Source of the DNA: Anthoceros angustus
Lineage: Eukaryota > Plantae > Anthocerotophyta
Length of the DNA: 58,266 nt
Direction of reading: 5' to 3'
NCBI GenBank assembly: GCA_010909165.1
Contig: MU008224.1
Span: forward strand, 1-58,266
Below are positions 1-37,318 of the stretch, piece after piece; position 1 is the first letter of the stretch; each line of letters opens with the position of its first letter. Both the position numbers and the translations under genes were made by a program. The notes under the pieces are model-generated. The model ran no database searches and had not been told where the DNA came from. It worked only from the letters and a program-made list of their open reading frames with translations.

Positions 1-2351
1 CAACTCAAGTTGACAACGGATCTTCATTCATCTTTGAAGGGCGTTAGGCATGTTCGAAGTTGACAAAGAGCATGATTAGCGCGGGACGGTTGGATGATCT
101 TTGGTTACCCTCTTGGTTTGGGGATCACTCTTGGAAGATCTCCAAAGGTTCTCTTGTGTTAGCTCGTGGATCAGTGTGGCACTTTGTACTCACTTGTAAA
201 CATCAAAGATCATGTGATTCGTGAGCAACCAAATGTTTCCTTGTGGCATTGCGGTTAGGACATATGTCTCGAAGGGAATGAAGGTTTTATCTCGTTCGGT
301 TATATCCTCTTAACTTCTCGATCTCTCGATGTGTGAGCCTTTATATGGGAAGCAGACAAAATCATCACATCGAACAAGAGGTAAAGTAGTAAACCTCTTG
401 AGTTGGTTCATGATGTATGTGGACCTATGCCTCTGCATCATTAGGCGGTGCCTCTATTTTGTCACTTTCATAGATGATTTCTCACAAGGTGTGGGTTTAT
501 CCTTTGAGGAAAAAGGATGAAGTTACGGTGTTTGAAATTTGTCACCCTTGTAGAGAATCGGTCAGCCGATTGAAGTGTCTAAGGGATAATGGTGGAAGTA
601 TGTTTCAGCTTTCGGTCATTACGTGATTCCAAGGAATCAAAAGATTTGTATACTCCTCCACAAAATGGTGTGGTGCGGATGAGCAGAACCATTCGAGAGA
701 GGATGTAGTTTGTTGTCAAACTCGGATTGCCTAATGGGTTTTGGGCGAGCGGTGTCTCTGCGTTCATCTTATTAACGATCTCCTAATAAAATTGATGAGC
801 GGGTTCGAGCTATGGCAGAACCATCCTACAAGCATCTGCGAGTGTTTGGGTATGAGGCATCGCCATGTTCCAAAAGAGTTTCGGGACAAGTTGGCACCTA
901 AGTCCAAGAAATGTATTTTTCTTGGCTATGGTGATTCGGTGAGATGGGATACCGTTTGTGGGATCCAGGCTAGAAAGGTTGTTCGTACTAACGACGTGTT
1001 CTTCAATGAGAACAAGATGCACGGAAGCCTACTCCAAGCGTGGAGGTGCGAAGGGTGATCTTCCAAGAAGATGGACATGATCATCATGGCGGTTGATGCA
1101 TAGTAATGTGCGGGGCACATTCCTCCACCGATAGATGAACCAAGAGTCGAACAAGCACCTATAGAGGTGCACACTGGGTCGAGGATTACGACCTCACGGC
1201 GGTATGATCCATCTCTGGATTATGTCATCTTGACAGTTGTGGGGAACCCTCTTCTTACAAAGAGGCTCATCAACAAAGAGAAGTGGGAGAAGGCCATGCG
1301 ATCGAGAAATGAATTGCATAAGAACCAAACTTGGGAGTTGGTTCGGTTGCCTAGGATAAGAAGGCACTCTGCAAATGGGTGTACAAGATGAAGGTCATAC
1401 CTTGATGGCAAACCAAAGTACAAGGCACGATTGGTTGCTAAGGGTTTCAAGCAACAACGGCATTGACTTTGATGAGATTTTCTCACCATAGTCAAAATGA
1501 CAACTTTGCGATGTGTTCTTGCTTTGGTTGCGGATGATATGGAACTTGTATGCGGATGGATGTCAAGAGCATTCTTGCATGGTGACCTTCAAGAGGGCGT
1601 CTACATGCGGCAACGGAAGGTTTTGTTGAGAAGGGCAAGAGCATCGGTGTGCGAGGTTGAGGAAGAGCCTTTATGGTTTGAAACGGGCACCAGTGGTATC
1701 ACAAGTTCCACTCATTTATGCTTTCTCAAGGCTACAAGCGTGGCGATGAGGATCATTGCCTCTATCTGAAGCAAGCTAAGGATCAAAGCTTGCTCATTTT
1801 GATCCTCTATGTGGATGATATGCTAATTCTTTGGAGCAGTCTTGATGAGATTTGTTGAAGTCAAAGTTGAATGCTCACTTTGAAATGACGGACTTGGGAG
1901 GCGAGCCATATACTTGGCATGCGTATTCGTCGGAGCAGACATAAGCGTGCTTTATTTGTCTCGAATACATTAACGGGTGCTTCAACGTTTCAACATGGAG
2001 AAGGGAAGCCATTGGGTACTCCATTGCCTCCATATGTGAAACTTTCAAGCGCGGATTGCCCAAGCTACGAGGAGGACAAAGCTGAAATGGAGAAGGTCCC
2101 ATACTCATCGGTAGGGAGTTTGATGTATGCAATGATTGCTACGTCGACATTGCCTTTGCGGTGGGAGTGGTTAGTTTATGTCAAACCACGGCAAGAAGCA
2201 TTGGGAGGCGATAAAAGGAGTTATGAGGTATCTGAATGGTACAAAAGCTTTGTGCATATGTTTTGGTAGTGAAGATGCATGTGTGGTTGGGTACGGATCG
2301 ATTATGCGATATGGACAAAAGGAGGTCCACATCAGTTATGTCTTCCGCGTG
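1..2351 (+). mobile_element. Ty1/copia LTR retrotransposon, 5' part of pol (GAG-pre-integrase, integrase, RT, start of RNase H), frameshifted
   Basis: Motifs in copia order: LWH..LGH (~241-262), YFVTFIDDFS, KKCIFLGYG, KYKARLVAKGF, AFLHGDL, LYVDDML (~1806-1826), VPYSS.VGSLMYAM, KKHWEAIKGVMRYLNGT. Interrupted at 2352 by the gypsy block. Confidence 0.95.
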
Positions 2352-5300
2352 TGTGGCGCGACTTTCGATAGCCAGCGGCGCGCACAATCCGTGTCGTTGT
2401 AGGAAGAAGTCGTTCCCAAAGGGAATGATAGGCCGTTTACGTTTGGTGATTCCTTAGCGTTCGTCTCAACACACATACTCTAACTACTCTGGCGTTCACC
2501 GTCTAGCCGGTATGGCCAAGCGTTTAAGGACCCGTTCGCGTCCGTATCGTTCACATCCTCCGCATCGATCCTTTCCTCTCTCCCTCACGCTACACTCTTG
2601 TCTTAGAAAAAAGCGCGGGTTCTGTGATCCGGACCTCCTCGTCGTTCGGGCCTCTCGTCCGGGCTCTACGCCCTCCGAGTTCCTCGGCTCACCGTTCGAT
2701 CCGTTCGGTGTCGGACGCGGCTCGGGACGGGTCACGATCACCCTTCCACCACACACCACAGCGTTAAGTCGTCACGGGACCTTGATCAATCTCCCGGGGT
2801 GCCGTGCACCTTTCGGTGACTCGGGACTCACGTTAGCAAGAAGACTGTGCGAGCGGCATCAACACCAAGAAAGATGCTTTACTAGGCTCGGCCCTCTTAT
2901 CTGCGCCCAAGGTGGCGTCTTTATTACACCCCTATTACGGTGATAGCCCATTTCGGTATACCTAATCGGCCTACCATCCTATTTCCCCCTATCTCCTTCG
3001 CCATGTGTGGGAAGGTCACAGGCCCGCCTCGGGAATGGGTGGTCAATCCCCGTCACAGCGGTTGTGGTGCACCCAATCGGATGATCCGGTGGCGGGGCCC
3101 TCTCTCTCCGGAATCACAGCCGGGTTGGGCTCTGGCGGATCGACAAGCCGTTACCACGTCATCCTCCACAGCCTCCACAGGTCCTTGGCCGGTGGGGCCA
3201 CCCGCTCTGCTCCCCTAAGCGTAAGTCGAAGGGGCTCCTCCTTCTTGCCTTGTCCGGTCCTCGAGGTCACTCGACTCACGAACTTGAGTCAGCTTCAGTC
3301 CGGCTGGGTCACCTTGTCTGCAGGGTCCGGACCTCGAGTCGGACTTATTCAGGTCCGGACTTGAGGTCCGGCCTCCCCTAGTCAGGACAAAGTCGGACTC
3401 CTCCACCAGGTTTCCTCCCTCACAGGACTCCTCAGTGGCTCTCCTCGAAGTCCTTCGCTGTTCCCGATCGCCGGTGACTCCTTTGGCCCCTCCTTCCATG
3501 GTGAGGTGCGGGGTGCCCTCGATCGCATCCGCTCGTTCTCCTCCATTGCTCCTCTCCGCGCTCCGTCATCTCCAAGCAGGGGCCACTAGGGTCCCTGTCT
3601 TGTCCCGTGGCCTTCATCTCCAGGCCTTCCGGTCCGTCCGTTTCTGAGGTCGAGGCTTCTCGCCTTGGGAGCTCGGCGTGGTAATAGGCAAAGTCACAGA
3701 TCGACTTGTTGAATTGCCTCTTCCACGTGTGCGGGAACCCGATACTCCCTCATAAGTGTTCAGGCGTCTTTGCCCGGCTTGTTGGGCCACCTCTCCTGCC
3801 CGGTTGTGTGGGCCGGTATCGCGAGGCTACAAGGCGGCCTCGGTCACCTCCTGCAGTGCCATTGTTGCTCCACTCTCGGCTCCGTCGTTTCCTCTCCATT
3901 GCCGCTTACCGCCATGGCGCGGCGTTCCCTTCCGCCTTTCTCGGTGGACCGGCTTCTTTTTCGCTTCCGGTGCTCGCGCTCCTCCGTTCATTACGGCCTT
4001 TAGCTCCGCTCCTCTCCAGGCGGTCGGATACCTCCGTCCGCTCGGGACTTCCTCCGGCTCATACATGGCAGCAGCGTCCAACTCCTTGGATAGTCGCGAT
4101 TTTCCTCCGTCTTGAGGCGAGGCTGCTCTGTTTGTGCTCGAGTCGTGGATTCTCTCGTTGAGAATCACTGCTCAAGCGCATCTTGGGTTGTAGCTCCAGT
4201 GTGTCCTTTGTCCTCCATCTGCTGCCGCCTCTCCTCTACTTCCTGTGCTCGGAGATCTCTATCTCCCAGTCTTGGCCTCCATCTCCTCCTTTGGCGCCGC
4301 TCCATGCCTTTGTCACGGGTTAGCCTCGGCTGTGACTCTCTCCACGGTTCGATCACGTCGTAGTGATCCGGTCGCTCTTGCGGCTTGACTCCCGCCCGCC
4401 AGGCCGCCCACTTGGCTGCTCTGGGCCGCCTCCGCCCGGTCCCAGCTCTCTCTTGTGCCGGGCCTCTTCCGCCTCTGCTGCGCTTCCCTCACCGGTCCTC
4501 CGCCCGCTTGGCCTCCAGCTTGCTTGTTCGCCGGTGAAGAACCTTAACCAGTCTGTGAACCGCCGGGCCTCGCGCTCACCCGGCGTTTCCCTTCCTCGAT
4601 CCGGCGAGGACTCCGCCTTTCCTTTGCCCCTGGCGCCTTCACTTGCTCTTGGGTTCCACCATCCTCCTCGGGTGGCCTCCACTTCGGTCTTCTCCATGCC
4701 GAGACCCCAAAGCATTCCGTCCATGGCGGTAGCAGGACTTCGCCGTGTTTCTTCGGCCGCCCAGTGAGGCCCCACAAAGTCCGTAGTGGGGCCGGCATTT
4801 CGATCCGCCAAGGACCTCCTCCATGATCAGGAGTAAGTCGGTGGGTTCTCGGACCTAATCGGGACCCTCGGGTCACAGTGGTGGTCAGGACTCACCCTCT
4901 TTGGCCCTCTTGGCCTCTAACTCCTTTGTGCCCTCTTTCTCACAGGGCTCGGAGGAGGTGAGGGGGTCGGGAGCAAGCTCTTTTGCCCCTTCACATCGGG
5001 GCAGGCTCGGGGTGGTGCTGCCCGGTGACCTCCTGCTCCTTGGGCCACGTCCTTCTGCCCTCCTTACGCCTCTTGACCTCTTGCCACTCAGGTGGCGGGG
5101 GTAAGTCTGCGGCTCGAGGTCTTTGCGTTGGTAAGCGGCACCGTCTTCCGCCTCTTGGCTCCCGTTGAGTTCGTCGGGGCTCGGCGGCCGTCGTGGTTGT
5201 TGGGCTGTCTGCGGTCGGGCCGCCCTCGGCTCCCTCCTGTCTTGGGCTCGGAGGGCACCAAAAGGAGGAAGGGAATCGCCTCCTCCCAAAGGTGGTGAGG

Positions 5301-6958
5301 GGTTCGCTCAGGTATGGAGTCAGGAATCCCCGTCGTCCTCCTCCGAGTCGCTTGGTCTTGAAGGGCGACCCCCACCTCAGGCGCCCTTGCACGCTCTACT
5401 TACGGGGCCTCCGGGAGCGCCCGTTCAAGCTCTCCCTCCTTGAGGCTCGAAATGTCCCCATACATGTCGTCGGCCCCGATGGCGAGGCTTCGCTCCTTAG
5501 CTTGCGTGCCTCTGGTGCAGGCGAAGATAATCCTTCCCAGTCGCTCTCTTCCCATTGGGCGCATGCGAGAATACCAGGTTATCACCAAGGTGATCCACCT
5601 TGGTGGCGAGTTCAATGGACAATGATCCGGGCTACCGCCCTTACTCGGATCGGCGGATCGGATATCAACCATCCGTTGGTTGTCGCTGCGTTCGAGCCTC
5701 TCCATGCGCTGTGGCGGCCTATCTTCCCCGCCTTAGGGGCTCGCGCCCCTTCTTCCTCCTTGAGCTCGAAATGTCCCCATACATGAATCGGTATGGGGTC
5801 GCCCCGATGGCGAGGCTTCGCTCCTTAGCTTGCGTGCCTCTGGCAGGCGAAGATAATCCTTCCCAGTCCGCTCTCTCTTCCCATGGGCGCATGCGAGAAT
5901 ACCAGCAGTTATCACCAAGGTGATCCACCTTGGTGGCGAGTTCAATGGACAATGATCCGGGCTACCGCCCTTACTCGGATCGGCGGATCGGATATCAACC
6001 ATCCGTTGGTTGTCCCGTTCGAGCCTCGGCCCCGTGGCGCCCTATCTTCCCCTTCGCCTTAAGGGGCTCGCTGCGCCCCTTCCTCCTTGGGCGGTTGTAG
6101 GCCATCCTCGGGACCTCAAGGTCCATCGCCTCGAGTCCTCCGGAGGTTCTTGGATCGGACCTCCTTGTTGATCGCCTTGACATCTTAACTCCGGACTAGA
6201 GTAGCGTTGTCAAAGGTCGAGACCATTTGGAACACGTCCAGGATGCCACTTCCCACCTTCCTCCGGCCGGAAGTCCGGATAGCGGGTCACAATGTTGCGC
6301 TCCACGGTCCATGGCTCCCAGACTTCGTCGGCTTTTGGGTGCCATTGCTCCTCCTCTTGTTCTGGCTGCGGAGTCCGGCGCGATGTTCCTCCTCCGCGTT
6401 GTTGCTCCAACCTTGGCGGTGAGCCGCGCTCTAGGCCCAAAAGAGCGCCGAGCGGATTGCGGGCGCAAGGCTATGAGGATTGCGGAGGCTGCGTGAAGCC
6501 TCCCTCCTTCCGCGCTTGTGGAAAGCTGGGCGGCGCGCCTCGCCGTTGTCGTAGCGCGAGTGCATGGCTTACTCGACCCTCGCGCTTACTGCGGCCTTAC
6601 GCGCGCCGCGGGCGTGAATACTGCCTCTGACCTCGGCAGGTTACGGTCACGACCTCGCATGCCCGACCTCCACTCGGGGCCGTCCACGTGGCGCCGCCTC
6701 TCCTCACGCCTCGCTCCTAGGTTACTTTCTGGCGTACTTATCCTATTTTGACACAGGGTGGGTTCGGACTTATCCGTTACTCCGGCGTAGTCGGAGCTTG
6801 CCATAGTGGTGCAGGGGTCCGTTGTTCACTCCAGTCGGAGTATACTCGAGCCTCGTCCGGCGCTACCCCAATTTATTCCTCCTTTTGCCTTATTTATCCT
6901 TCAATCCTAAAAAGCGAAACCCTACTTATTTCTTAACTCCCGAAGTGCATAGCCCACA
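2352..6958 (-). repeat. Giant LTR 1 (3' LTR, ~4.6 kb, includes a ~320-bp internal duplication)
   Basis: TG...CA ends. Adjoins the PPT at 6959. Colinear with 17665-21965 and 27525-37318. Confidence 0.9.
3215..6804 (-). CDS. LTR-embedded long ORF (~1,000-1,150 aa consensus, charged/low-complexity, unknown function), frameshifted copy 1
   Basis: Minus-strand ORF pieces chain from MASSDYAGVTDKSEPT (6804) or MHSRYDN (6565) through WEPWTVERNIVTRYPD, DHCPLNSPPRWITLVITWYSRM and TAMDGMLWGL..EATRGGWWNPR to QEGGAPSTYA* (3215). The same peptides recur in the other two LTRs. Strand purine skew matches gag-pol. Confidence 0.6.
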
Positions 6959-8385
6959 TACTCCCTTCTCATCATTGGCGTCTCGCCAACACTAAGCATG
7001 ATACTTCTTCACCGCCACCCGTTCACAGTGGGCAGCTCTCCATCTAGGCATGGCCGGACCCGTTGTCATATACTTGCACCACTTAGTACGGACCCATCCA
7101 TCTCGGTGAAGTTTGCGGAAAATGCATGCGACTATCATAAAGGAGGGCGGTCCCTTCCTTTACATACTCCGATTCGGCGTGATCGTGCCAAATCTTATTG
7201 GTTTTGCACCTGTTGCATCTTCGGTGAGCTTCTTCCTCCTTGGGCGGTTGTAGGCCATCCTCGGGACCTCAAGGTCCATCGCCTCGGTCCGGAGGTTCTT
7301 GGATCGGACCTCCTTGTTGATCGCCGCCGGCATCTTCGGGCAAACTCCGGACTAGAGTAGCGTTGTCAGTCGAGACCATTTGGAACACGTCCGGATGCCA
7401 CTCCCCCAATTCCCACCTTCCTCCGGCCGGGGCCGGTCCGGATAGTCACAATGTTCGCTCCACGGTCCATGGCTCCCAGACTTCGGCTTTTGGGTGCCAT
7501 TGCTTCTCCTCCTCTTGTTCTTTGTACTGGCGAGTCCGGTACGATGTTCCTCCGCGCGTTATTGCTCCAACCAGCGGTGCGCGCTCTAAGGTGGCGCCCA
7601 AAAGATAGCGCGGGCGGATTGCGCAAGGCGCATTATGCGGAGGCTGCCGCGTGACCTCCCTCCTTGCGCTTGTGGAAGTATGGCTGGCGGGCGCCTCTTC
7701 GTTGTCCGTAGCGCGAGTGGTGCATGGCGACCCTACGCTTGGCCTTACCGCGCGCGCCCGGGCGTGAATACCTTATAACGGCCTCGGCAAGGTTACGGTC
7801 ACTCTGCATGCCCGACCTCCACTCGGGGCCGTCACGTGGCGCCGCCTGCTCCTCACGCCTCGCTCCTAGGTTACTTTCCAGGCGTACTTATCCTGTTTTG
7901 ACTGGGTGGGTTCGGACTTATCCGTTACTCGGCGTGGTCGGAGCTTGCCATAGTGTGCAGGTCCGTTGTTCACTCCAGTCGGAGTATACTCCGAGCCTCG
8001 TCCGGCGCTACCCCAATTTATTCCTCCTTTTCCGCCTTATTTATCCTTCAATCCTAAAAAGCGAAACCCTACTTATTTCTTAACTCCCGAGTGCATAGCC
8101 CACATACTCCCTTCTCATCTGTTGGCGTCTCGCCAACACTAAACATACTTCTTCACCGCCACCCGTTCACCCAGTGGGCAGCGACTCTCCATCTAGGCAT
8201 GGCCGGACCCGTTGTCATATACTTGCACCACTTGATGCGGACCCATCCATCTCGGTGAAGTTTGCACGGAAAAAATGCATGCGACTATCATAAAGGAGGC
8301 GGTCCCTTCCTTTACATACTCGATTCGCGATCGGCGATCGTGCCAAATCTTTTGGTTTTACCAAGCTGCATCTTGGTGAGCTTCT
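6080..8385. repeat. ~1.15-kb tandem duplication of LTR end + PPT + integrase 3' end
   Basis: 7231-8385 repeats 6080-7230. Junction at shared CTTCTTCC. Confidence 0.85.
6959..6975 (-). promoter_or_regulatory. Polypurine tract (copies at ~8105-8119 and 21966-21980)
   Basis: The minus strand reads GATGAGAAGGGAGTA immediately before the LTR start TGTGGGCT. Confidence 0.85.
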
Positions 8386-11300
8386 TCCCATCCTCGTGTC
8401 TTTGAACAAACCCCAAGAGTCGCTCGGTGGCTTTCCTCCTCTGTCGATCTCCTTCCATCATTACTCGAAAAGTGGGCACTTCAAACTCAGCATTACGGGA
8501 GAGTGTCGTAGGTCAAGTAAGGGTCCGTTGTGTGGTCACCTTCTGCTGTCCGGGCATAGTGCGGATGGCGACTTAGTATCCATCATGGGCGTAGTTCCTG
8601 AGTTTATTCGATCCTGAGATGAGCCCATTTGTCTTCTCTCGACCCATTGGCCTTAGGATTGTAGGGTGCCGTCTTGCGATGATTGATGCGAAATACTCCG
8701 TCATGGCGGCCACCACATCATTAAGGAAATGGGTTCCCCTATCACTTACCAAGCTGCGGACATCCGTGCGGGTTATGATGTTCTCGTCGAATTTGGCCAC
8801 TATTTGCGAGTCCGTTCTTATCGCCCGCCTCTACCCACAGTGCGATGTCCGTTGCCACGGGATGTATCTCCTTTGTGTGTGTCTTGTCGTGGTATAGGTC
8901 CAACAAAGTCAATACCCCACTTTTGAAGGTGCCGGTGCCAATATCGGTACTAGCGGCCCTGTCGTCGGGGTTGGCTTTCGATCCGGTGACAAGCATCACA
9001 CTTCTTCCTAAGCGGTGGGTGTCCCCATACATTGTTGGCCACCGTATCCGCTTCAAAATCTTTTGGTGGTGACTGTCTTGCGTAGTGTCCTCCCCAATCC
9101 TTCGTGCATTCCCTTGGCGCTCCACATCTCTGGGTTGCAAGTACCTTCGTTCTACTCCGTCAGGCCCTAATTTGAACACACACCGTTGTACATTACGAAG
9201 GGTCGAGCATAGTGCACGAATGCCTCCCTCCCCGAGTCGATTTTGAGCTCCATTCCCAGTACCGCTCTATTTCTTCGTGGGTCGGACGGCGGCGGACCCT
9301 CCCTTCCACGCTAAGGGTTCTCGTAGCTTGGGGTTCGGTGGGCTCCTCGGTTGTACTTTCTGCGGCAACCAATGTCTCATCCAGGGCATCTTCACGATCT
9401 CTCAACACCTTTCTGTTTTCAATCGTGACGAAATCGCATTTTGGTCTTGCCTCCCTTGTCTTGTTTCCACTTGACGTGAACTCTGCGGCAACAATATCCA
9501 CCTTGCTATCCGTCGGACGGTCCGCCTTATTCACCGGATGCTTGATAAAGTGGTCTACATAGAACACAAACTCCTTTGGGTAGGTAGTGTCGAATTTCTT
9601 GACATATACCATACCCGTGCTTGGCGCTGTAGTTGTGTATTTTCGTTCGCGTGGGTGGTCGTCCGGTAGTATATCGGGATAATCCCGCTTGTCGTCCTTC
9701 GGCTCGACTACTCCGATAGCGGACACGTCTACATACACATGAAATTTCTGCTCGGTCCGGTCCTCTTAGAACCGTTACCAAGGTGTTACGTAAATCCGAA
9801 GGCCTCCTCTCGCTCCACGTGACCGGTCCAAACCTCCTCCTTCCTTGAGTTACATCAACTTAGCCCTCTTAAAGTCCTTAATAAACCGGTAGTATCCCAC
9901 CATTCCGAAACCTCTCGGCTCCTTTAGGTTCGTTGGTGGAGGCGGATGACCGGACCTTGTCTGGTCCACCTCGATTCAGCGACACGATGTCGACAAGATT
10001 CCCTCCGTCATTCCAAAGTAGCATTTCTCGGTGTAGGCTCAATTGAGTCTCCGGCGCTCAAGCACCTTCTTAGATGCCCAAGGTGTTTGTCCTGCTCCCC
10101 ATGCACACAAAATCATCCGGGAATATCTCCATGAAGTCCCTCGAAGTCACGGAAGGCGTTGGTCACCATACGCATGAGCGACCACAGGCGCTCCGGTCAT
10201 CCCAAAGGCACTTCTCTTGTAGGCAAGCGTACCCCACTCCGTAGTGAAGGTCGTCTTGTCGGTCAAACTCCCTTAGGTGCAATTGGTTATGTGTCCGGAG
10301 TAGCCATCCGGAAGGAGTAAGTAGTCCGTCCGACCACCTTGTCCAAAATATGTCTCTGAATGGCATCGGAAGTGGTCCTTCTCGTTCTTGCGTTGAGCTT
10401 CCTCAATCTTGGCATACCCAATTTGTCTGGTGTTTCTTGGGAACCACCACAATCGTAGCGACCCACTCGGACGATGGGGAAAATGATGTCTGCCTCCGGT
10501 ACTTATCAAGGACCTCCTTCACCTTGATCGAATACTTGGGGTTGAGCTTGTATTGTCCAGTTGATGGCACACGGCTTTCGATCTTATGCTCTCCCACTTC
10601 TTGAATGCCCTTCATGTCCGTGACCTTGAAGGCGAACACCTCATAAAACTCCCCAGGCTTTAGTCCTTCCTTGGTCCGGAGGCATGCCTTTCTTAAACTT
10701 GAGAATTTGCACGGACCTCCACTTCTTCCACGTCGTCCGGGTTCACCGTCTCCGTTCCGTCCCTCGCTGCGTCAAACCCCTCGTCCTCCTCTCGGGATCG
10801 TCCTCTCGCATCCCCATTCTGAAGAGCTCGTCGGAGGTGAATCGTGTTACTCCTTGATGTCGCTTTTCCTTGGTCCGACTCTTGTTGTCTCCCTTGTCTT
10901 TGGTCACCTCCTCTTCACTTCCTTCCTCCGGCCCGTTGTGGCGTTTACTCAAAACAATCAACCACTTCCGCGCCAAAGGCATCCGCGGTAGTCCATCTCC
11001 TCCTCGGACCGGCGGATCTTGGCGAAAGTCGCCTCCTCGGAACTATCTTGTTCGTCGCTGGAGTCCTCCGAGGTATACCCTTGGTAGTGCTCACGGTTTC
11101 TCCACAATAGGTGTCCTTGCTCCGGTGATAGCAATCCCTCCCTTCACCTTAGGGTCCCATCCACCGGCTTGAAGTGAATCTCCTTCCTTCCAAAGTGTAG
11201 CTTTGTGCAGGCCAACCCATGGCCCGCAACACCTCATACCCTAATGGTCCGGCGGTTTGATCACAACAAAATCCGGTTTGTAGGGTGCGCGGCTATGGTG

Positions 11301-14300
11301 GCCAAGACTCGGTTAACTCCCCGGATCTCTTCTTGACATATACGCCATTCGAGTCTTCGTTGAGGTTGAAGGATGTGAAGCCCAATTTTCGTTGGCTTGA
11401 TGATGAGGTTGACTCGGACCCGTGTCCAGGTACATCCTTGATGATACATCCAATCTCCACTTGTACCACTGGCGGTCCGTATGGGACACCACCCTCACTT
11501 CCATGCTACCCTTCACGGCTTTGGTGCTCCTGGGTTTCCCTAACGCCCGGACCTCTTGTCGGTATTTGGGTTATCCCTCGGCGGTCGAAAGGACACAAGG
11601 TCTGATTCATCATCGGTCCGCCACATTAAAGGCGAGGCTTCTACCCCAATCGAGGATCCTGCTGCGTCCTCATCCTCTCCCGGTCGCCGTGTTACGGTAT
11701 TCTCCGGATGCTTGCGCATTTCCTCCTGCAACATCTCGGTCACCTCCGGACTACGTCCGAAAACGCGTCGTCGCGGGAGGCACCGTTCCTTCTCCCCATC
11801 TGCGGAGAACTTCCTTGGGTAATCCCTCGGCGAGCTGCCGTCCGCCCTCCTTCATCGGTCGGATCCTCTGCTGGTATTTCCGTTTGATTGCCTTCCTCGG
11901 CGTCGTGGCGCTTCCTCCGATCTTGTTCTTCTTCAAGCTGGCGCCTTTCTCGTCGCTCCTTCCTTGACTACAGTAGACACCTCAAGATTTCCATGACTCC
12001 CTTCCTTTCGACACCCCGTACCTTCTTGTTCTTTTCCATCTCGCGTACCTCAATCTCTTCCCACTCCATGTGAGCATCTTGACTTGCCGTCTGTAAGTCT
12101 TAGGAGGTGGCGTTGGTGGTCGAGTTCTCCGCTTGGTGTGGCATATCGTACCGTCCTTGTCGGGGTTGGGACATAGCGTCTTGCACGCCATATGCCCTTG
12201 CGACGCCAGCTCGAAGTCCCCATTACCACCTCGTTGAGTGCGGACAGCGTTGGAGTAATGGCGATTCCGCAGTTCCAACGGACCACGGCCGTCGGAGGAT
12301 ACGAAGGGCTCCCATGCGGTCTTTGCATCGGTGGGGCCCGTTGTATTGTGGACCTCCGGTTGGCGGATACATGGTTTTGGGATATCGCGGCCCGGAGGGC
12401 TTCATGCACGATAGGCCTCTTCCCATTGCTCCTCGGCCTCCTCCTCGTCGTAGTCCACTTGATGCCGGCCTTGAGGCGGTTGGACTTCGAATGGCCGTGT
12501 TCTTGGCACACGGCACACGAGATGCGTTCGCCGTGGTCGGTGTTTTCCGCGCTCGGTCCTTAACACAGTTTATCGCGGTCCTCTACTCTCTTTATCACTT
12601 TTCGGTCCTCGCGGACTGCTACCTCCTTTGAGGGAGTCGGGTCCGGCGGTTTGATCACAACAAAATCCGGTTTGTAGTGCGGCTATGGTGGCCAAGACTC
12701 GGTTAACTCCCCGGATCTCTTCTTGACATATACGCCATTCTCGAGTCTTCGTTGAGGTTGAAGGATGTGAAGCCCAATTTTCGTGGGTGATGAGGTTGAC
12801 TCGGACCCGTGTCCAAGTACATCCTTGATGATACATCCAATCTCCACTTGTACCACTGGCCCCAGGTCCGTATGGGACACCACCCTCACTTCACTGCTAC
12901 CCTTCACGGCTTTGGTGCTCATGAGGCTGGGTTTCCCTAACGGCGCGGACCTCTTGTCATTATTTGGGTTATCCCTCGGTTGTCGAAAGGACACAAGGTC
13001 TTCGATTCATCATCGGTCGCCACATTAAAGGCGAGGCTTCTACCCCAATCGAGGATCCTGCTGCGTCCTCATCCTCTCCCGGTCACTTGTGTTACGGTAT
13101 TCTCCGGATGCTTGCGCATTTCCTCCTGCAACATCTCGGTCACCTCCGGACTCGTCCGGTGGAAAAGCTCGTGTCGCGGGAGGCCGTTCCTTCTCCCTGT
13201 CACATCTTGGAGAACTTCCTTGGGTAATCCCTCGGCGAGCTGCCGTCCAGCCCTCCTTCATCGGTCGGATCCTCTGCTGGTATTTGATTGCCTTCCTCGG
13301 CGTCGCCTTCCTCGATCTTGTTCTTCTTCAATGGCGCCTTTCTCGTCGCTCCTTCCTTGACTACAGTAGACACCTCAAGATTTCCGACTCCCTTCCTTCG
13401 ACACCCCCACCTTCTTGTTCTTTTCCATCTCGCGTACCTCAATCTCTTCCCACTCATGTGAGCATCTTGACTTGCCGTGCAGTAGTCTTAGGAGGTGGCG
13501 TTGGTGGTCGAGTTCTCCGCTTGGTGTGGCATATCGTACCGTCCTTGTGCGGGGTTGGGACATAGCGTCTTGCCCTTATGCCCCACTGCTTGCGATCCAC
13601 CTGACGCTCGAAGTCCCCATTACCACCTCGTTGGAGTGCGGACACGCGTTGGAGTAATGGCGATTCCGTTCCAAGACCACGGTGTGAGGATACGAAGGGC
13701 TCCCATGCGGTCTTTGCATCGGTGGGGCTCGTTGTATTGTGGACCTCCGGTTGGCGGATACATGGTTTTGGGATATCGCGGCCCGGAGGGCTTCACATGC
13801 ACGATAGGCCTCTTCCCATTGCTCCTCGGCCTCCTCCGTATTCGTAGTCCACTTGATGCCAGCCTTGAGGCGGTTGGACTTGAATGGCCGTGTTCTTGGC
13901 ACGGCACACGAGATCGTTCGCACCGTGGTCGGTGTTTTCCGCTCTCGGTCCTTAACACAGTTTATCGCGGTCCTCTACTCTCTTTATCACTTTTCCGGTC
14001 CTCCCGCGGACTGCTACCTCCTTTGAGTCGGGTCGGAGCTTCTCGGACCGGTCTTTGGTGTCACCACCTCCTTCTTACCACCTTCTTTTTAGGGGCTTTC
14101 TTGCTCTTCTTCTTGGGGATACTCTTCCTCGCTAGAGACCTCCGTCTCTTCTTGGACGGCTCCTCCTCAAGACACCTCCGATTGGTCTTCCTCCTCCTCA
14201 AGACTCTTCCTCCTCGATCGAACCCCGTTTCTTCTTCTTCTTCTTGCCTCCTTGAGCGGATTTCTTTATCCTCGATGTAGCGATTCCTCGTAGTTTTTCC

Positions 14301-14930
14301 GCTCGACCGCCTTGCCCACGTCCTTCTCGGCTAGCGGCGGGGCGTGCAGCCATGGGTTTGGCTAGACCGGCGCGAACCACCGTCCGCTTGCATCGTGGTA
14401 TGGGTTGGATGCCGATCCTCGGGCATAGAACCGCTCGATGTGAGGCTTCTCCTTCTTCCCTCGATTTTCCAACTTTGATAATACATACCCCTCACGGTGA
14501 TCCCTCGAAACCGTTCTAAGAAGGCATTTTCAAAGCTTCAAGCAGGCGGGTGGGGCATTCTCCGTGGTCGGTACTTTCTCCGATACCATTGAGTTGTCCT
14601 CGGAGAACCCCTTGGAAAAATTTGGATGAGCGTCGACTCCCTCTCCGTTGAAGTTGGCTTTGGACATGAAGTCCTCCACAAAGGTCTCGCATCCGCTCCT
14701 TCTTCCCTCCGAATATGGAGTCGCTTGTTTGGTCGGTAGGGGCCATGGCTGCCATCGATGGGTTAGGCGTGTCCTACCTTCTTCCGTTGGCGTCCTTGTA
14801 CCCTGTACTCGTCTTGGTCACAATTCGACGTTCTCCCTCCTCGATCGGTGCTCTCGTTGGGTTTGGCGTCTCTCTCTCTCACGGCTCGGAGAGCGAGGTG
14901 ACCACGTCCATCCTCCGGCGGTTCACTCTT
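8215..14930 (-). pseudogene. gag-pol of gypsy internal region 1 (gag with two CCHC knuckles, protease, RT, RNase H, integrase), frameshifted, with a ~1.39-kb internal duplication
   Basis: CAVCQEHGHSKSN and WNCG..HYSNACP knuckles. LDTG protease motif (~11410-11440). RT: QYKLNPKYS..VKE.LDK, WVATIVVVPKK, KDHF.MPF, DGYSG. Integrase: GIDFVGP-like region and VSDRGTHFLND. Domain order PR-RT-RH-INT. Confidence 0.93.
11250..14030. repeat. ~1.39-kb tandem duplication within gag-protease
   Basis: 12640-14030 repeats 11250-12640. Junction at shared GGTCCGG. Confidence 0.85.
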
Positions 14931-15012
14931 GACCGCCGACCTCACGCATTCACTTACCTTCTCTTCCTAAGGGCGCGGCTGCAGACCGATTTCATTCCCG
15001 GCAGCGCCAAAA

Positions 15013-17664: not shown

Positions 17665-20600
17665 TGTGGCGACTTTTGCGATGGGCGGTAGCGCCACAAT
17701 CCGTGTCGTTGTAGGAAGAAGTCCGTTCCCAAGGGAATGATAGGCCCGTTCTGCGTTTGGTGATTCCTTGGCGCTCGTTCTCTCAACACACACATACTCT
17801 TCTCACTTCACCGTCTGAGCCCGGTATGGCCAAGCGTTTGAGACCCGTTCGCGTCATTATCGTTCACATCCTCACGCATCGGTCCTTTCTCTCTCTCCTC
17901 TCACGCTACACTCTTGATCTTAGAAAAAAGCGCGGGTTCATCCGGACCTCCTCTCGTTCCGGGCCTCTCGTCCGGGCTCTACACCCTCCGGAGTTCCTCC
18001 GGCTCACGCGTTCGATCCGTTCGGTGCGCGGCTCGGGGCGAGCACGGTCATCACCCTTCCACACACCACACAGCGTTAAGTCACGGGACCTTGATCTCCC
18101 GGAGGCGTGCACCTTTCGGTGACTCGGGACTCACGTTAGCAAGAAGACTCAAAGGTGCAAGCGGCATCAACACCAAGAGAAAGATGCTTTACTAGGCGAC
18201 CTCGGCCCTCTTATCTGCGCCCAAGGTGGCGTCTTTATTACCCTAGCCCATTTCGGTATACCCTAATCGGCCGCCTACCATCCTATTTCCCCCCTATCTC
18301 CTTCGCCCGTGGGTGGGAAGGTCCAGGCCCGCCTCGGAATGGGTGGTCCAATCCCGTCAGCGGTTGTGGCGCGCAATCGGATGATCCGGGGCCCCTCCTC
18401 TCCCGGAATCACATGTCGGGTTGGGCTCTGGCGGTCGACAACGCCGTTACCGACGTCATCCTCCCACGGCCTCCACAGGTCCGCCGGTGGGGCCACCACT
18501 ATCCTCCCCTAAGCGTAAGTCGAAGGGGCTCCTCCTTCTTGAGTCCGGTCCTCGAGGTCTGTCTCGACTCCGAACCCGAGTCCGGCTTCTGGTCCGTGGT
18601 CCGACCCTCTCTGGGGTCCGGACCTCGGGGTCCGGACTTTATTCGGGTCCGGACTTGAGTCCGGCCTCCCTCAGGGTCCGGACAAAGTCCGGACTCACGC
18701 CCACCGGGTTTCCTCCCTCACGGGACTCCTCAGTGGCTCTCCCTCAGTCCTCCTGTTCCCGATCGGACTCCCGTTGGCCCCTCCTTCCATGGTGAGGTGC
18801 GGGGTGCTTACCTCGATCGCATCCGCTCCTCGTTCGCTCCTCCGGTTGCTCCTCTCCGCGCTCCGTCATCTCCAAAAGGCCACTAGGGTCCCTGTCATCC
18901 CCGTGGCCTTCATCTCCTCCAGGCCTTCCAGGTCCGTCCGTCTGCGTGAGTCGAGGCTTCTCGCCGGGGCTCGCGTGGTAATAGGCAAAGTCTGATCGAC
19001 TTGTTGAATTGCCTCTTCCACGTGTGCGGAGCACCGATACTCCTCCCCATAAGTGTTAGGGGGCGTCTTTGCCGGCTTGTTGGGCCACCTCTCTGCCAGT
19101 TGTGTGGGCCCATGTCGCGAGGCTACAAGGCGGCCTCGGTCACCTCCTGTGCCCATTGCTCACTGCTCCAGCTCCGTCGTTTCCTCTCCATTGCGGCTTA
19201 CCGCCATAGCGCGGCGTTCCCTTCCGCCTTTCTCGTGGAACGGCTTCTTTTACGCTTCCGGTGCTCGCGCTCCTCGTTCATTACGGCCTTTAGCTCGCCT
19301 CTCCGGTGATCGGATACCTCGTCTCGGACTTCCTCCAGCTCCTTACATGGCAGCGTCCAACTCCTTGGATAGTCGCCGATTTTCCTCCGTCTTGAGCCGG
19401 GCTGCTCTATTTCGTGCTCGAAGTCGTGGATTCTCTGAGAATCACTGCTCAAGCGCATCTTGGGTTGTAGCTCCGTGTCCCTTGCATCCTCCATCTGCTG
19501 CCGCCTCTCCTCTACTTCCTGCGGTGCTCGGAGATCTCCTATCTCCCAGTCGCCTCCATCTCCTCCTTTGGCCTTGCACTCCATAGCCTTTGTGCGGCCA
19601 GTTAGCCTCGGTACTGTGACTCTCTCCACGGTTCGATCACGTCATGGTGATCCCGGTCGCTCTTTCGACTTGAGCTCCGCCGCCGCCTTTACAGGCCGCC
19701 CACTTGGCGCTCTGGCCGGGCCGCCTCCGCCCGGTCGAGCTCTCTGCTTGTGCCGGGCCTCTTCCGCCTCTGCTGCGCTTCCCCCTTCGCTGCAAGGTCC
19801 TCCGCGCGCTTGGCCTCTGAGCTTGCCCGGTGACCGCCTGTGAAGAACCTTCGTCTGCTTGAACCGGGCCTCGCGCTCCACCGGCGTTCCCTTCCTCGAT
19901 CCGGCGAGGGACTCCGCCTTTTCCTTTGCCCCTGGGCCGCCTTCACTTGCTCTTGGGTTCCACCATCCTCCTCGGGTGGCCTCCACTTCACAGGTCTTCT
20001 CATACCAGAGACCCCAAAGCATTCCGTCCATGGCGGTAGCGGGACTCGCCGTGTTTCTTCCACGGCCGTGAGGCCCCACAAAGTCCGTAGTGGGGCCGGC
20101 ATTTCTCGATCCGAGGACCTCCATACGCATGATCCGGGAGTAAGTCGGGTTCTCGGACCTAATCGGGACCCTCGGGTCACAGTGGTGAGTCCGAGTCTCA
20201 CCCTCTTTGGCCCTCTTGGCCTCTAACTCCTTTGTGCCCTCTTTCTCACAGCTCGGAGGAGGTGAGGGGTCGGGAGCAAGCTCTTTTGCCCCTTCACCGC
20301 CGGGGGCAGGCCGGCTCGGGGTGGGCTGCGCGGTGACCTCCTCCTTGGGCCACGTCCCTTCGCCCTCCTTACGCCTCTTGACCTCTTGCCACTCACCGTG
20401 GGCGGGGTAAGTCACCTTCGAGGTCTTTGCGTTGGTAAGCGGCACCGTCTTCCGCCTCTTGCTCCCGTTGAGTTCGTCGGGGCTCGGCGGCGTCGTGGTT
20501 GTTGGCTGTTGTCGGTCGGAGCCGCCGCCGCCCGCATCGGCTCCCTCTGTCTTTGCTCGGAGGGCACCAAAGGAGGAAGGGGAATCGCCTCCCAAACTTC

Positions 20601-21965
20601 CACAGGTGGTGAGGGGTTCGCTCAGGGCGTATGGAGTCAGGAATCCCTCGATCGTCCTCCTCCGAGTCGCTTGGTCTTGAAGGCGACCCCCACCTCAGGC
20701 GCCCTTGCACGCTCTACGGCGGGGCCTCCGGCCCCTTCCGGCGCCCTCAAGCTCTCCCTCCTTGAGCTCGAAATGTCCCCATACATGAATCGGTATGGGG
20801 TCGATGGCGAGGCTTCTCGCTCCTTAGCTTGCGTGCCTCCCGCAGGCGAAGATAATCCTTCCCAGTCGCTCTCTTCCCATGGCGCATGCGAGAATACCAG
20901 GTTATCACCAAGGTGATCCACCTTGGTGGCGAGTTCAATGGACAATGATCCGGGCTACCGCCCTTACTCATTGTCGGGATCGGATATCAACCATCCGTTG
21001 GTTGTCGCTGCGTTCGAGCCTCGACGCCGCGTGGCGGCCCTATCTTCCTTCGCCTTAAGGGCTCGCACCGCCCCTTCTTCCTCCTTGGGCGGTTGTAGGC
21101 CATCCTCGGGACCTCAAGGTCCATCGCCTCGGGTCCTCCGGAGGTTCTTGGATCGGACCTCCTTGTTGATGCCGCCCGGCATCTTCGGGCAAACTCCGGA
21201 CTAGAGAGCGTTGTCAAAGGTCCAGACCATTTGGAACACGGTGCCATCCCCGCACCAATTCCTTCCTCCGGCCGGGCGTCCGGATAGCGCGGGTCACAAT
21301 GTTGCGCTCCAGGTCCATGGCTCCCAGACTTTCGGCTTTTGGTGCCATTGCTTCTCCTCCTCTTGTATTCTTTGGCTGGCGAGTCCGGCACGATGTTCCT
21401 CCTTGCCGCGCGTTCTTGCTCCCAGCGGTGCGCGCTCTAAAGTGGCGCCCAAAAGATGGCGCGAGCGGATTGCGGGCGCAAGGGCTGTGAGGATGCGGTG
21501 CGCGGCCAAATGACCTCCCTCCTTGGCGCGCTTGTGGAAATAACTGGCGGAAGGCGCCTCTTCGTTGTCGTAGCGCGAGTGCATGGCACTCGACCCTCGC
21601 TTGCTTACTCGGCCTTCGCGCGCGGCGCGGGCGTGAATACTGCCTGCGGCCTGCGGCAAGTTACGGTCACCCCTGCATGCCGACCTCCACTCGGGGCCGT
21701 CCACGTGGCGCCGCCTCGTCATCCTCACGCCTCGCTCCTAGGTTACTTTCCTGGCGTACTTATCCTGTTTTGACACAGGTGGGTTCGGACTTATCCGTTA
21801 CTCCGTAGTCGAGCTTGCCATAGTGTGGTCCGTTGTTCACTCCGGTCAGTATACTCGGAGCCTCGTCCGGCGCTACCCCAATTTATTCCTCCTTTTCGCC
21901 TTATTTATCCTTCAATCCTAAAAAGCGAAACCCTACTTATTTCTTAACTCCCAGTGCATAGCCCA
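17665..21965 (-). repeat. Giant LTR 2 (shared middle LTR, ~4.3 kb)
   Basis: PBS on its left (17646-17661) and PPT TACTCCCTTCTCATC on its right (21966-21980). Confidence 0.9.
18509..21821 (-). CDS. LTR-embedded long ORF, copy 2
   Basis: ORF-track pieces 21294-21728, 20987-21391, 19642-20595 (317 aa) and 19198-19629 match copy 1. The same terminal stop context (CTAAGCGTA on +) is at 18509. Confidence 0.6.
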
Positions 21966-22074
21966 TACTCCCTTCTCATCATTGGCGTCTCAACACTAAG
22001 CATGATACTTCTTCACACCCGTTCACCCGGTGGGCAGCTCTCCATCTAGGCATCGTGGCGGGGCCGGACCCGTT

Positions 22075-25000
22075 GTCATATACTTGCACCACTTGTACGG
22101 ACCCATCCATCTCGGTGAAGTTTGCACAAATGCATGTGACTATCATAAAGGAGGGCGGGTCCCCCCCTTTACATACTCCATTCGCGATCGGCGATCGAAA
22201 TCTTTTATTTGGTTTTGCACCGCATCTTCGGTGAGCTTCTTCCACCGTCCCTGTGTCTTGAACAAACCCCAAGAGTCGCTCTGGCTTTCCTCTTCATCTC
22301 TCCTTCCATCATTACTCGAAAAGTGGGCACTTCAAACTCACGGCATTACGGGAGAGTGTCGTAGGTCAAGTAAAGTCCGTTGTGTGGTCACCTTCTGTCG
22401 GGCATACGGTGCGGATGGCGGCTTGGTATCCCGATCATGGGCGTAGTTCACTGTGAGTTTATTGAGGATCCTCGGATGAGCCCATTTGTCTTCTCTGTCG
22501 GCCCATTGGCCTTAGGATTGTAGGGTGCCGTCTTGCGATGATTGATGCGAAATACTCCGTCATGGCGGCCACCACATCATTAAGGAAATGGGTTCCCCTA
22601 TCACTTACCAAGCAGCGGACATCCGTGCGGGTTATGATGTTCTCGTGAATTTGGCCACGGTATTTGCGGAGTCCGTTCTTGTCGCCACGCCTCTACCACC
22701 AGTGCGATGGTCCGTTGCCACGGGATGTATCTCCTTTGTGTGTGTCTTGTGGTGTATAGGTCCAACAAAGTCAATACCCACTTTTCGAAAGGTGCCGGTG
22801 CCAATATCGGTACTAGCGCCCTTTGTGTCGTCGGGGTTGGCTTTCCGATCCGGACAAGCATCACACTTCTTCCTAAGCGGTGGGTGTCCCCATACATTGT
22901 TGGCCACGTATCCGCTTCAAAATCTTTTGGTGGTGACTCTGCGTAGTGTCCTCCCCAATCCCGTGCATTCCCACGAGCTCCTGTCTCTGCGGTTGTAAGT
23001 ACCTTCGTCTACTCCGTCAGGCCCTAATTTGAACACACACCGTTGTACATTACGAAGGGTCGAGCATAGTGCACGAATGCCTCCCTCGTCCACGAGTCGA
23101 TTTTGAAGCTCCATTCCCAGTGCGCTCCATTTCTTCGTGGGTCGGACGGCCCCTCCCTTCTCCGCTTCGCTAAGTGCAGTTCTCGTAGCTTGGGGTTCGG
23201 TCGGTGGGCTCCTCGGTTGTACTTTCTGCGGCAACCAATGTCTCATCCAGGGAGCATCTTCACGATCTCAACACACCTCTGTTTTCAATCGTGACGAAAT
23301 CGCATTTTAGTCTTGCCTCCCTTGTCTTGTTTCCACTTGACGTGAACTCCTGCAGCAACAATATCCACCTTGCTATCCGTCCGGACAGTCCGCCTTATTC
23401 AGATGCTTGAGCAAAGTGGTCTACATAGAACACAAACTCACTGGGTAGGTGTCGAATTTCTTGGTATACCATACCCGATTGCGCTCTGTAGTTGTGTATT
23501 TTCGTTCGCGTGGGTGAGCCGTCCGGTAGTATACGGGATAATCCTTCGCTTGTCGTCCTTACGGCTCGGCACTACTCCGATAGCAAAGCGGACACGTCTA
23601 CATACACATGAAATTTCTTGCTCGATCCGGTCCTCTTAGAACGGTGCGCTTACCAAGGTGTTAGTAAATCCGAAGGCCTCCTCTCGCTCCGTGACCGGTC
23701 CAAACCTCCTCCTTGATGGTTACATCACTTAGCCCTCTTACAAAGTCCTTAATAAACGCGGTAGTATCCCACCATTCCGAGAAATCTCGGCTCCTTTAGG
23801 TTCGTGGTAATGGATGATGACGGACCTTGTCTGGTCCACCTCGATTCAGCCCAGATGTCCGACAAGATTCCTCCGTCATTCCAAAGTAGCATTTCTCGGT
23901 GTAGGCTCAATTGAGTCTCGGCGCTCAAGCACCTTCTTAGATGCCCAAGGTGTTTGTCCTGCTCCCCATGCACACAAAATCATCCAGAATATCTCCATGA
24001 AGTCCCTCGAGTCACGGAAGGCGTTGGTCACCATACGCATGAGCGACCACAGCGCTCGGTCATCCCAAAGGCACTTCTCTTGTAGGCAAGCGTACCCACT
24101 CGTGTGAAGGTCGTCTTGTCGGTCAAACTCCCTTAGGTGCAATTGGTTGTCCGAGTAGCCATCCGGGAAGGAGTAAGTAGTCCGTCCACCTTGTCCAAAA
24201 TGTCGTCTGAATGGCATCGGAAGTGGTCCTTCTCCGTTCTTGCGTTGAGCTTCCTCAATCTTGGCATACCGAATTTGTCTGGCTTCTTGGGAACCACCAC
24301 AATCGGCGACCCACTCGGCTGTGACGATGGGGAAAATGATGTCTGCCTCCGGTACTTATCAAGGACCTCCTTCACCTTGATCGAATACTTGGGGTTGAGC
24401 TTGTATTGTCGGATTGATGGCACCGCTCCGGCTTCAAATCGATCTTATGCTCTCCCACTTCTTGAATGCCCTTCATGTGACCTTGAAGGCGAACACCTCA
24501 TAAAACTCCCCAGGCTGCTTTAGTCCTTCCTTCAGTCCGGGCATGCCTTTCTTAAACTTGAGAATTTGCACGGCGGACCTCCACTTCTTCCACGTCGTCC
24601 GGGTTCACCGTCTCCGTTCTCGTCTTTGCCTCGCTGCGTCAAACCCTCGTCCTCCACTCGGGGATCGTCCTCTCGCATCCCCATTCTCGAAGAGCTCGTC
24701 GGAGGTGAATCGTGTTACTCCTTGATGTCGCTTTTCCTTGGTCCGACTCTGTCTCCCCTTGTCTTTGGTCCGACCTCCTCTTCACTTCCTTCCTCCGGCC
24801 CGTTGTGGCGTTTACTAAAACAATCAACCACTTCCGCAAAGGCATCCGCGGTAGTCCATCTCCTCCTCGGACCCGGCGGATCTTGGCGAAAAGTGCCTCC
24901 TCGGAACTATCTTGTTCGTCGCCGTGGAGTCCTCCGAGGTATACCCCAGTAGTGCTCACGGTTTTCCACAATAGGTGTCCTTGCTCCGGTGATAGCAACC

Positions 25001-27400: not shown

Positions 27401-27502
27401 GAGTGACCACGTCCGATCCTCTGACGGTTCCTCTTGACGTGCTCGACCGCCGCATTCACTTACCTTCTCTTCCCTAAGGGGCGCGCACCACGGACCGATT
27501 TC

Positions 27503-27521
27503 ATTCCCGGCAGCGGCGCCA
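27503..27521 (-). promoter_or_regulatory. Primer-binding site, tRNA-Asp type (degenerate copies at ~14994-15009, ~15575-15588, ~16144-16157, ~17646-17661)
   Basis: The minus strand reads LTR..CACA-TTT-TGGCGCCGCTGCCGGGAAT. This is close to the TGGCGCCGTTGCCGGG tRNA-Asp PBS known for Athila-type elements. Confidence 0.85.
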
Positions 27522-27693
27522 AAATGTGGCGCGACTTTTCTCTTGATGGCGCGCGCACAATCCGTGTCGTTGTGGAAAGTCCGTTCCCAAAGGGATGATA
27601 GGCTCCGTTTACAGCGTTTGGTGATTCCTTAGCGTCGTTCAATCTCAACACACAGGACTCTAACTTCTCTAGCGTTCACCGTCTGAGGCCGGT

Positions 27694-30600: not shown

Positions 30601-31147
30601 TGGAGGATTTTTCAGCATGTCCCGCTTGTTCTCGCTTAGGGTGGCCTAAGCCGTCAGCGTACACCCGTTACCTCTACTTTTTCTTTTAGGGTAAAAGATG
30701 TGGGTTATCATCAAAACCCATTCTAAATTAGTCTTGTTAAATAATCGTGTCTAGTCGTAAAGGGTCTTGTTGAAAACCCCTGTGTGTAGTAAACTATGGG
30801 ATGTTGTAAAATACCATTGGCATGTTGTAAAAGAACCCGTTGCGATGGAGAAAGTCCTAGTAAATTGATGGCCCGTGGTAAACAAACATGCCGCTATAAC
30901 GTCCATAAGCTCTCTGTTGTAAGTAAAAGTGCCCGTAGTAAAATCCATTTTGTTTTTGCGTCGGTTTGCGCCTTTGGCAAAACAAGCCACAGTAAAGTTG
31001 GAATGAGGTTTAGTAAATTCGAGGCTATACTTGAAAATAATACATGGACTTGAAATTGCCTTCAATTGACGTAGTAAAATGGGCGTCGTGGTAAAATGCA
31101 CCCTGTTGTAAAGCGCAATTAGTAAAAGTATACTTTTCCTAGTAGTA
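27694..31147 (+). mobile_element. Non-autonomous CACTA (En/Spm) DNA transposon, copy 1
   Basis: Ends CACTGCTAGGAA...TTTTCCTAGTAGTA. 3-bp TSD GGT (27691-27693 and 31148-31150). Many subterminal TTACTACGG/CCGTAGTAAA repeats. No transposase motifs seen. Confidence 0.9.
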
Positions 31148-37160: not shown

Positions 37161-37318
37161 AGTGGTGCAGGGGTCCGTTGTTCACTCAGTCCGGAGTATA
37201 CTCCAGAGCCTAGTCCAAGCGCTACCCCAATTTATTCCTCCTTTTCGCCTTATTTATCCTTCAATCCTAAAAGCGAAACCTACTTATTTCTTAACTCCCG
37301 AGGAGTGCATAGCCCACA

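Follow-up and report, generated by a model that had tools for sequence, protein, structure and literature searches.

A probable accessory reading frame in the U3 region of the long terminal repeats of an Athila-like Ty3/Gypsy element from Anthoceros angustus

Anatomy and classification of the element

The DNA analyzed here, hereafter the window, is the whole 58,266-nucleotide (nt) stretch of Anthoceros angustus contig MU008224.1 (assembly GCA_010909165.1, positions 1 to 58,266 of the forward strand). On its minus strand it carries a Ty3/Gypsy retrotransposon with long terminal repeats (LTRs), and the subject of this work is a candidate accessory gene in the U3 region of these LTRs. An earlier reading made from the letters alone (the sequence-only reading) had proposed that each LTR encodes a protein of ~1,000 amino acids (aa) in one open reading frame (ORF). 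The features of the element are as follows.

2347..2351, no strand: target-site duplication (TSD) GCGTG, 3' flank, matching 37319-37323
2352..6958, minus strand: LTR A (3' LTR), TG...CA, including a local duplication of ~335 nt
2920..2925, minus strand: AATAAA, 290 nt downstream of the TAG, either a poly(A) signal or a TATA-like box of the genomic RNA
3215..6345, minus strand: probable accessory ORF in U3, ATG 6345 to TAG 3217-3215, ~930-980 codons with duplications discounted, many indels in every copy
6346..6958, minus strand: leader with AT-rich boxes 6897-6891 and 6877-6871 and the short MASSDY ORF from 6804; putative promoter
6959..6974, minus strand: polypurine tract (PPT), from the boundary reading
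6992..14740, minus strand: gag-pol of the 3' unit, with reverse transcriptase (RT), RNase H (RH) as well as integrase (INT) in the order RT-RH-INT, frameshifted and locally duplicated; stop 6994-6992
17665..21966, minus strand: LTR B (middle), ~4.3 kb, free of local duplications; the ORF region runs from 21348 to about 18515
21967..27524, minus strand: interior of the 5' unit (5.6 kb), with primer-binding site (PBS, 27521-27503), leader, gag-pol and PPT
27525..37318, minus strand: LTR C (5' LTR), interrupted by a CACTA-type element and with assembly duplications
27691..31149, no strand: 3.46-kb DNA transposon of the CACTA type, lying in LTR C (3' part) but not in the ORF
37319..37323, no strand: TSD GCGTG, 5' flank, matching 2347-2351

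Self-comparison and boundary reading along the minus strand gave the tandem order LTR C, PBS, 5.6-kb interior, PPT, LTR B, PBS, second interior, PPT and LTR A, with local duplications in the second interior, between LTR B and LTR A. The tandem is a single insertion, because GCGTG is found on both of its outer ends. The LTR limits proposed in the sequence-only reading were confirmed by this 5-bp TSD, by the TG...CA ends (LTR A, read from 6958 to 2352, begins with TGTGG and ends with CCACA), by the PPT, which directly abuts the start of LTR A, and by the PBS-type TGG sequence that follows both LTR B (end 17665) and LTR C (end 27525). Of the LTR length of 4.3 to 4.6 kb given there, the lower value holds for LTR B, and the 4.6 kb of LTR A contains the local duplication of ~335 nt (5431-5765 / 5751-6092), which is probably an assembly artefact. 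The total size of the element is ~14 kb. The CACTA-type transposon within LTR C has a second copy in the window, at 53398-56873; both measure 3.46 kb and they are 95% alike.

In LTR C, one local repeat matches at 366/366 bases, errors included, and because the identity extends to the errors, this repeat is an assembly duplicate. Purine-rich AAGGAGG-like words stand at the joins of local duplications (5751-5765, 7229-7239, 34688-34698, and 36061-36069), as expected for assembler misjoins. Artefactual duplications are many in the contig, and the middle LTR (B) may be one too, which would favor an explanation in which the LTR limits are set too far apart because of an assembly duplication or a nested element, and the frame is an ordinary internal extra ORF. 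The TSD, however, adjoins the outer TG and CA, and both outer repeats contain the ORF region, the 5'-most one upstream of the PBS and gag, the 3'-most one past the PPT. This explanation is already largely refuted, and we consider it very improbable.

The TG...CA LTRs, TSD, PBS, and PPT are those of Ty3/Gypsy elements, and the RT-RH-INT order follows from colinearity with the pol of a relative found on a metagenomic contig, L001. The two pol sequences align colinearly with a score of 1271 versus a shuffle null of 213±21 (z = 50), without insertion from RH to INT. Window pol scores 765 to 798 against L001 and two further metagenomic contigs, L005 and L006, versus 191 to 214 against the chromodomain element L003. 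Its end is like that of L001, L005, and L006, with no chromodomain seen, which is not what is expected of a chromovirus. Four aRH motifs had no matches in 15 frames of LTR and interior, a search of low power on frameshifted DNA. L005 and L006 are AT-rich Gypsy pol contigs of this lineage located in a cyanobacterial metagenome-assembled genome, where they are probably eukaryotic contamination.

The PBS presumably corresponds to tRNA-Asp, and no tRNA gene lies within the window. A 5-bp TSD, as found here, occurs in 95% of Athila elements and a tRNA-Asp PBS in 72%, and Athila elements range in size from 7.3 to 22.8 kb (PMC6317226, supplement 3). The window element further resembles Athila in its size, its RT-RH-INT without aRH or chromodomain, its long LTRs, and its extra ORF. 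It differs in that Athila extra ORFs are described as internal in the available portions of PMC7264820 and PMC6317226, whereas the window ORF lies inside the repeat; where Athila has an extra ORF and a long noncoding region between pol and the 3' LTR, the window element has ~33 nt.

Phygy and Selgy of moss and clubmoss share with the window element a polyprotein that fills nearly the whole interior (PMC6317226, in the part available), and window pol, like that of L001, L005, and L006, runs straight into the PPT. These elements differ, however, in having 4-bp TSDs, a tRNA-Trp or tRNA-Ala PBS, and sizes of 4.4 to 10 kb, with no eORF listed (PMC6317226, supplement 3), versus the 5-bp TSD and ~14 kb found here. 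Tat/Athila elements are absent from algae according to the part of PMC10508981 available. Judged by this absence, by the CACTA ends, and by the Streptophyta leads of L001 described below, the sequence itself points to a land-plant host, probably a non-seed plant. The element is probably an Athila-like non-chromovirus Ty3/Gypsy, where "Athila-like" is meant by features and alignment scores, without a tree.

The absence of an env-like ORF from its usual place, noted in the sequence-only reading, was borne out in that there is no room for one; the pol stop (6994-6992) is ~33 nt before LTR A, and the statement that integrase ends ~100 nt before the PPT did not hold. No hydrophobic run of 12 residues was observed in any frame, which is weak evidence on frameshifted DNA.

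Layout of a metagenomic relative and extent of the frame

The pol of L001 is intact, with Pfam matches to RVT_1, RT_RNaseH, Integrase_H2C2, and rve. Beyond its stop at 2487 lie a PPT and then TGTGGG, with which the LTR of the window element also starts. After a leader of ~570 nt comes an intact sense ORF of 630 aa (3097-4989), with AATAAA at 5032, ~45 nt past the ORF stop, and with an acceptor-like pyrimidine tract just upstream of the ATG that is clearer than that of the window. The ratio of observed to expected stops is 0.92 in the leader, 0.76 in the ORF, and 1.09 in the tail, the same pattern as in the window. L001 is an accurately assembled contig, and its element (2525-6092) is a cleaner test case than that of the window; the tail contains two repeats with ~250-nt spacing. 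The ORF protein gave no Pfam match; in the Atlas it had leads, all under 0.9, to Streptophyta clusters, to Transposase_32, and to ATHILA. When the L001 domain was folded from its single sequence, the pLDDT was 38.7.

In the window element, the ORF more likely starts at position 6345, with an ATG that is common to 4/4 reads and lies 613 nt inside the LTR; this start is inferred from the ATG context and the L001 layout. From there, the ORF takes up ~2.83 of the 4.30 kb of the LTR (66%), not the ~75% obtained with the start at MASSDY (6804). The MASSDY frame stays open for 72 codons in A and for 26 in C; in A0 and B it is broken within 8. Three of the four reads have one base more at about 6729 than LTR A, and with this base all three phases are closed between 6740 and 6706. 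A shared homopolymer loss could account for the 6729 site, but the leader (6958-6346) is also without stop depletion in the three LTRs (z of 0.1, −0.3, and −0.2), and the MASSDY start was therefore not retained.

The stretch 6346-6958 is probably a noncoding leader and likely promoter. It contains a pyrimidine-rich, AG-ended tract at about 6480-6431, a candidate splice acceptor. A diverged family is represented at 57323-57610 by the 5' end of an LTR, which has ~70% identity to the initial 300 nt of the window LTR and is cut off by other sequence; over the leader, the only part it covers, this LTR has the spacing of the three reads with the extra base at about 6729 and no MASSDY start. The other end of the ORF stood as first described, with GAPSTYA* found in A, B, and C and the AATAAA (2925-2920) lying ~290 nt past the TAG (3217-3215).

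Signs of coding and breaks in the frame

The coding character of the region was explored by comparing the number of stop triplets, all frames taken together, with that in 400 dinucleotide shuffles, over 6345-3215 and the equivalents in LTRs B and C. The sense strand had 65 stops versus 76.7 expected in LTR A (15/400 shuffles as low), 61 versus 75.8 in LTR B (1/400), and 74 versus 87.6 in LTR C (8/400), which corresponds to z of −1.9 to −2.6. No depletion was observed on the antisense strand (z of +0.8 to +1.3) or in the tail (z of +1.0 to +2.1), and the pol controls were depleted with z of −4.4 and −4.5. The four quarters of the LTR B ORF are all stop-depleted (z of −1.1, −1.9, −1.4, and −0.6). 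An amino-acid Viterbi score gave z of 1.1 to 2.0 for the long sense segments of the ORF, about 0 for the antisense strand and the tail, and 2.7 to 4.3 for gag-pol.

Taking advantage of diverged copies, silent changes were examined in two stretches. A segment of ~110 nt in LTR C (34694-34580 and 36069-35960) is far more diverged than the rest, perhaps by recombination from a related subfamily. Four gap-free pieces, picked by hand from this segment of one read, were compared with A0 over 34694-34580; each has one frame in which all its substitutions are silent (7/7 in total), against 0 in the other frames. The second stretch comes from a diverged contig of 1,635 nt from run X2, colinear with 4701-4733 and 4891-4923, where ten codons could be read by hand from a 30-nt loose end: 4/7 changed codons are silent and 3 conservative, and the other open frame has 0/5 silent.

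The contig was built from long reads and is unpolished. Between pairs of LTR segments, mismatches amount to ~5% and gaps to ~10%, and the short-read contigs of run X1 give 531 indels over 2000-15100. Given this error level and the assembly duplicates, no copy is able to display an unbroken ORF, and peptides shared among the LTRs are uninformative on selection. The occurrence of the same peptides in all three LTRs, put forward in the sequence-only reading, is thus not independent evidence, since all three lie within one TSD pair and one repeat is the 366/366 duplicate.

The single unbroken frame of ~1,000 aa was not found. No LTR copy contains an intact ORF, and the longest stop-free sense stretch measures 350 aa (19642-20694). 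When ten of the listed short-read indels are counted as phase shifts, a further 24 beyond the listing being left aside, each of the three phases runs into a stop in the stretch from about 35800 to 35720. One of these ten rests on 1 contig, at 836 of 2100 depth, and the long reads split at this indel, A1, A2, and B versus C1/C2 and C3. The W/H/C-rich islands described earlier are not supported, the frame through the region being ambiguous, and may be off-frame.

This closure raises the question of whether U3 is coding in origin but holds something other than one ORF: a pair of ORFs, a gene that is spliced, or one already broken in most copies, in which last case the family would still be mobile on gag-pol alone. 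A GTAAGG donor-like motif at the 35800-35720 site, a second three-phase block from 5427, and a depletion weaker than in pol agree with such a division. On the other hand, two of the reads, C1/C2 and C3, are without the base in question and stay open, and the ORF of L001 is single and intact. Stop depletion in all four quarters of the LTR B ORF also argues against a division. Moreover, the diverged X2 contig has one extra base in an A run near 4926 with respect to all four window copies, and breaks common to every copy can therefore be systematic errors. We regard a divided or broken gene as unlikely, though it deserves serious consideration.

Searches for homologues returned little. Pfam gave 0 families for LTR pieces, and with stops written as X, a scan without power gave no credible family in nine LTR frames or six gag-pol frames and no match to PF03078 (Athila ORF-1). 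A word-based search found no homologue for an LTR piece, the flanking SPT16-like ORF, or an integrase piece, and phmmer with one LTR B frame, a query probably only partly in frame, had 0 matches among 1.84 billion representatives. A 96-aa piece of the window had no usable match in the Atlas. LTR pieces and the L001 ORF found no match in contig scans, and L001 pol found 2 loci in one scan and none in the others. A PDB sequence search with one pol frame and an Rfam search both gave 0 matches.

Several observations weigh against a gene in U3. The three LTR copies are not independent, so that their stop depletion amounts to about one result with p of a few percent; the stop ratio is 0.80 to 0.85 in the ORF region versus 0.71 to 0.72 in pol, and the 6345 boundary, although fixed before the stop test, followed the analogy of L001. 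Viterbi z reaches only 0.0 to 0.6 in the short 5' segments. Stop-phase path (minimum-shift) and block tests were nulls, the period-3 signal had z of −0.6 to 1.9 with an autocorrelation weak even for pol, and substitution spacing showed no enrichment for multiples of 3 (20/88). The spacing, the block listing, and 44 isolated substitutions look dominated by read errors. The segment at 34694-34580 has almost no short-read cover. The closure of all phases at 35800-35720 and the lack of any homologue of the window ORF in Pfam, word, phmmer, Atlas, and contig searches, all of little power, belong here as well.

The support from L001 is similarly bounded, since the contig contains one putative LTR only, whose limit rests on the PPT and TG. 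Homology of its ORF to the window LTR was rejected, 268/917 shuffles reaching the summed score versus whole LTRs; the scores against an LTR region chosen post hoc (B, 83 versus 56±9; C3, 66 versus 52±6) are a lead, not evidence. L001 thus supports the layout, not homology.

The long frames could also have arisen in a noncoding LTR from a T-poor, GC-rich sense strand (12 to 13% T, 62% GC), with the shared peptides following from near-identical copies. The null periodicity and phase tests and the absence of homologues in every search are what this would produce. Nevertheless, the depletion was measured against dinucleotide shuffles, is confined to the sense strand, and ends at the inferred limits of the ORF, and two diverged stretches show silent-change patterns. 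The same Pfam scan missed gag-pol in 6/6 frames, so the homology negatives weigh little, and the L001 ORF is intact. A noncoding origin is consequently considered improbable. Of the original proposal of a sense accessory gene in the LTR, the core idea is supported by region- and strand-specific stop depletion, silent changes, and the intact ORF of L001; the unbroken frame is not supported.

Expression, function, and meaning of a gene in U3

The explanation that we favor, with a probability of roughly 0.55, is that the U3 of the 4.3-kb LTR of this Athila-like non-chromovirus holds a sense accessory gene of ~950 codons, from 6345 to 3215, whose product would be a nuclear regulator made via a shorter RNA. 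The breaks in the reading frame would then be mostly long-read errors. Because the ORF lies past the pol stop on the genomic RNA, it would need its own subgenomic message, which may begin within the leading 600 nt of the LTR or arise by splicing to the acceptor-like site at about 6431; the first 300 nt of the LTR, with AT-rich boxes, have 70% identity to the LTR of another family. The extra ORF that usually lies between pol and the 3' LTR in Athila/Tat-type elements would have come to lie beyond the PPT, and so would be copied into both LTRs at each transposition and kept in solo LTRs.

The nature of the protein is more doubtful. The sequence-only reading had suggested anti-silencing, targeting, or movement as possible roles. 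It may be a charged, largely disordered nuclear regulatory accessory protein with basic clusters, a tentative assignment suggested by these clusters, which depend on the frame, by charged low-complexity tracts, by the lack of a 12-residue hydrophobic run (a weak indication), and by analogy with GENE23 of maize Grande and the Athila domain. GENE23 is nuclear, with a promoter of its own (PMC7264820, in the part available), and the Athila domain is found among interaction-rich accessory proteins (PMC13547354, in the part available).

Genes inside an LTR are a layout known from a few retroviruses, and the sag gene of mouse mammary tumor virus (MMTV) has about 320 codons. According to the available part of PMC9412291, MMTV sag/naf is like the window ORF in lying within U3, and sag is expressed from a U3 promoter; it is unlike it in being a retroviral gene with an immune function, and the likeness is one of layout only. 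Among plant Gypsy elements, rice Retrosat2, RIRE3, and RIRE8, with ORF0, and maize Grande, with gene23, have LTRs of >3 kb or a fast-evolving extra ORF of unknown function, the LTRs of Retrosat2 exceeding 3.2 kb (PMC3485330 and PMC7264820, in the parts available). In these same parts, however, ORF0 is placed upstream of gag-pol and gene23 antisense between pol and the 3' LTR, and neither is described inside an LTR. Extra ORFs and LTRs of up to about 5 kb were already known for non-chromoviruses (available part of PMC6317226). Searches of open-access literature turned up no description of a long ORF within the LTR of a plant element, subscription papers being outside the search. The window ORF is probably a known kind of extra ORF in a new place, U3.

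Elsewhere in the window, three intron-free ORFs on the plus strand have Pfam matches: 38977-39780 to the SPT16 N-lobe (E of 2.9e-12), 45499-46680 to a protein kinase (E of 8.7e-65), and 48525-49016 to an N6/N4 DNA methylase fragment (E of 2e-08), which is unusual for a plant-like genome. A GAG-pre-integrase match at 57708-58253 on the plus strand (E of 3.3e-07) is probably a Ty1/Copia fragment.

Plant LTRs are usually taken as cis-regulatory DNA, and reviews place extra ORFs internally. It is possible, although we hold this with less confidence than the coding of U3 itself, that a land-plant non-chromovirus lineage, with the window family, the relative of the X2 type, and L001 as members, has transferred into U3 a whole accessory gene (600 to 1,000 codons) together with its promoter. 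If so, each insertion would carry two copies of the gene and each solo LTR would stay a protein-coding unit, in the manner of MMTV sag, a layout that would be missed by annotation limited to internal regions. Coding in U3 would also give a reason for some LTRs of 4 to 5 kb, and solo-LTR recombination, the main route by which the host removes such elements, would leave behind many copies of an accessory gene able to act in trans.

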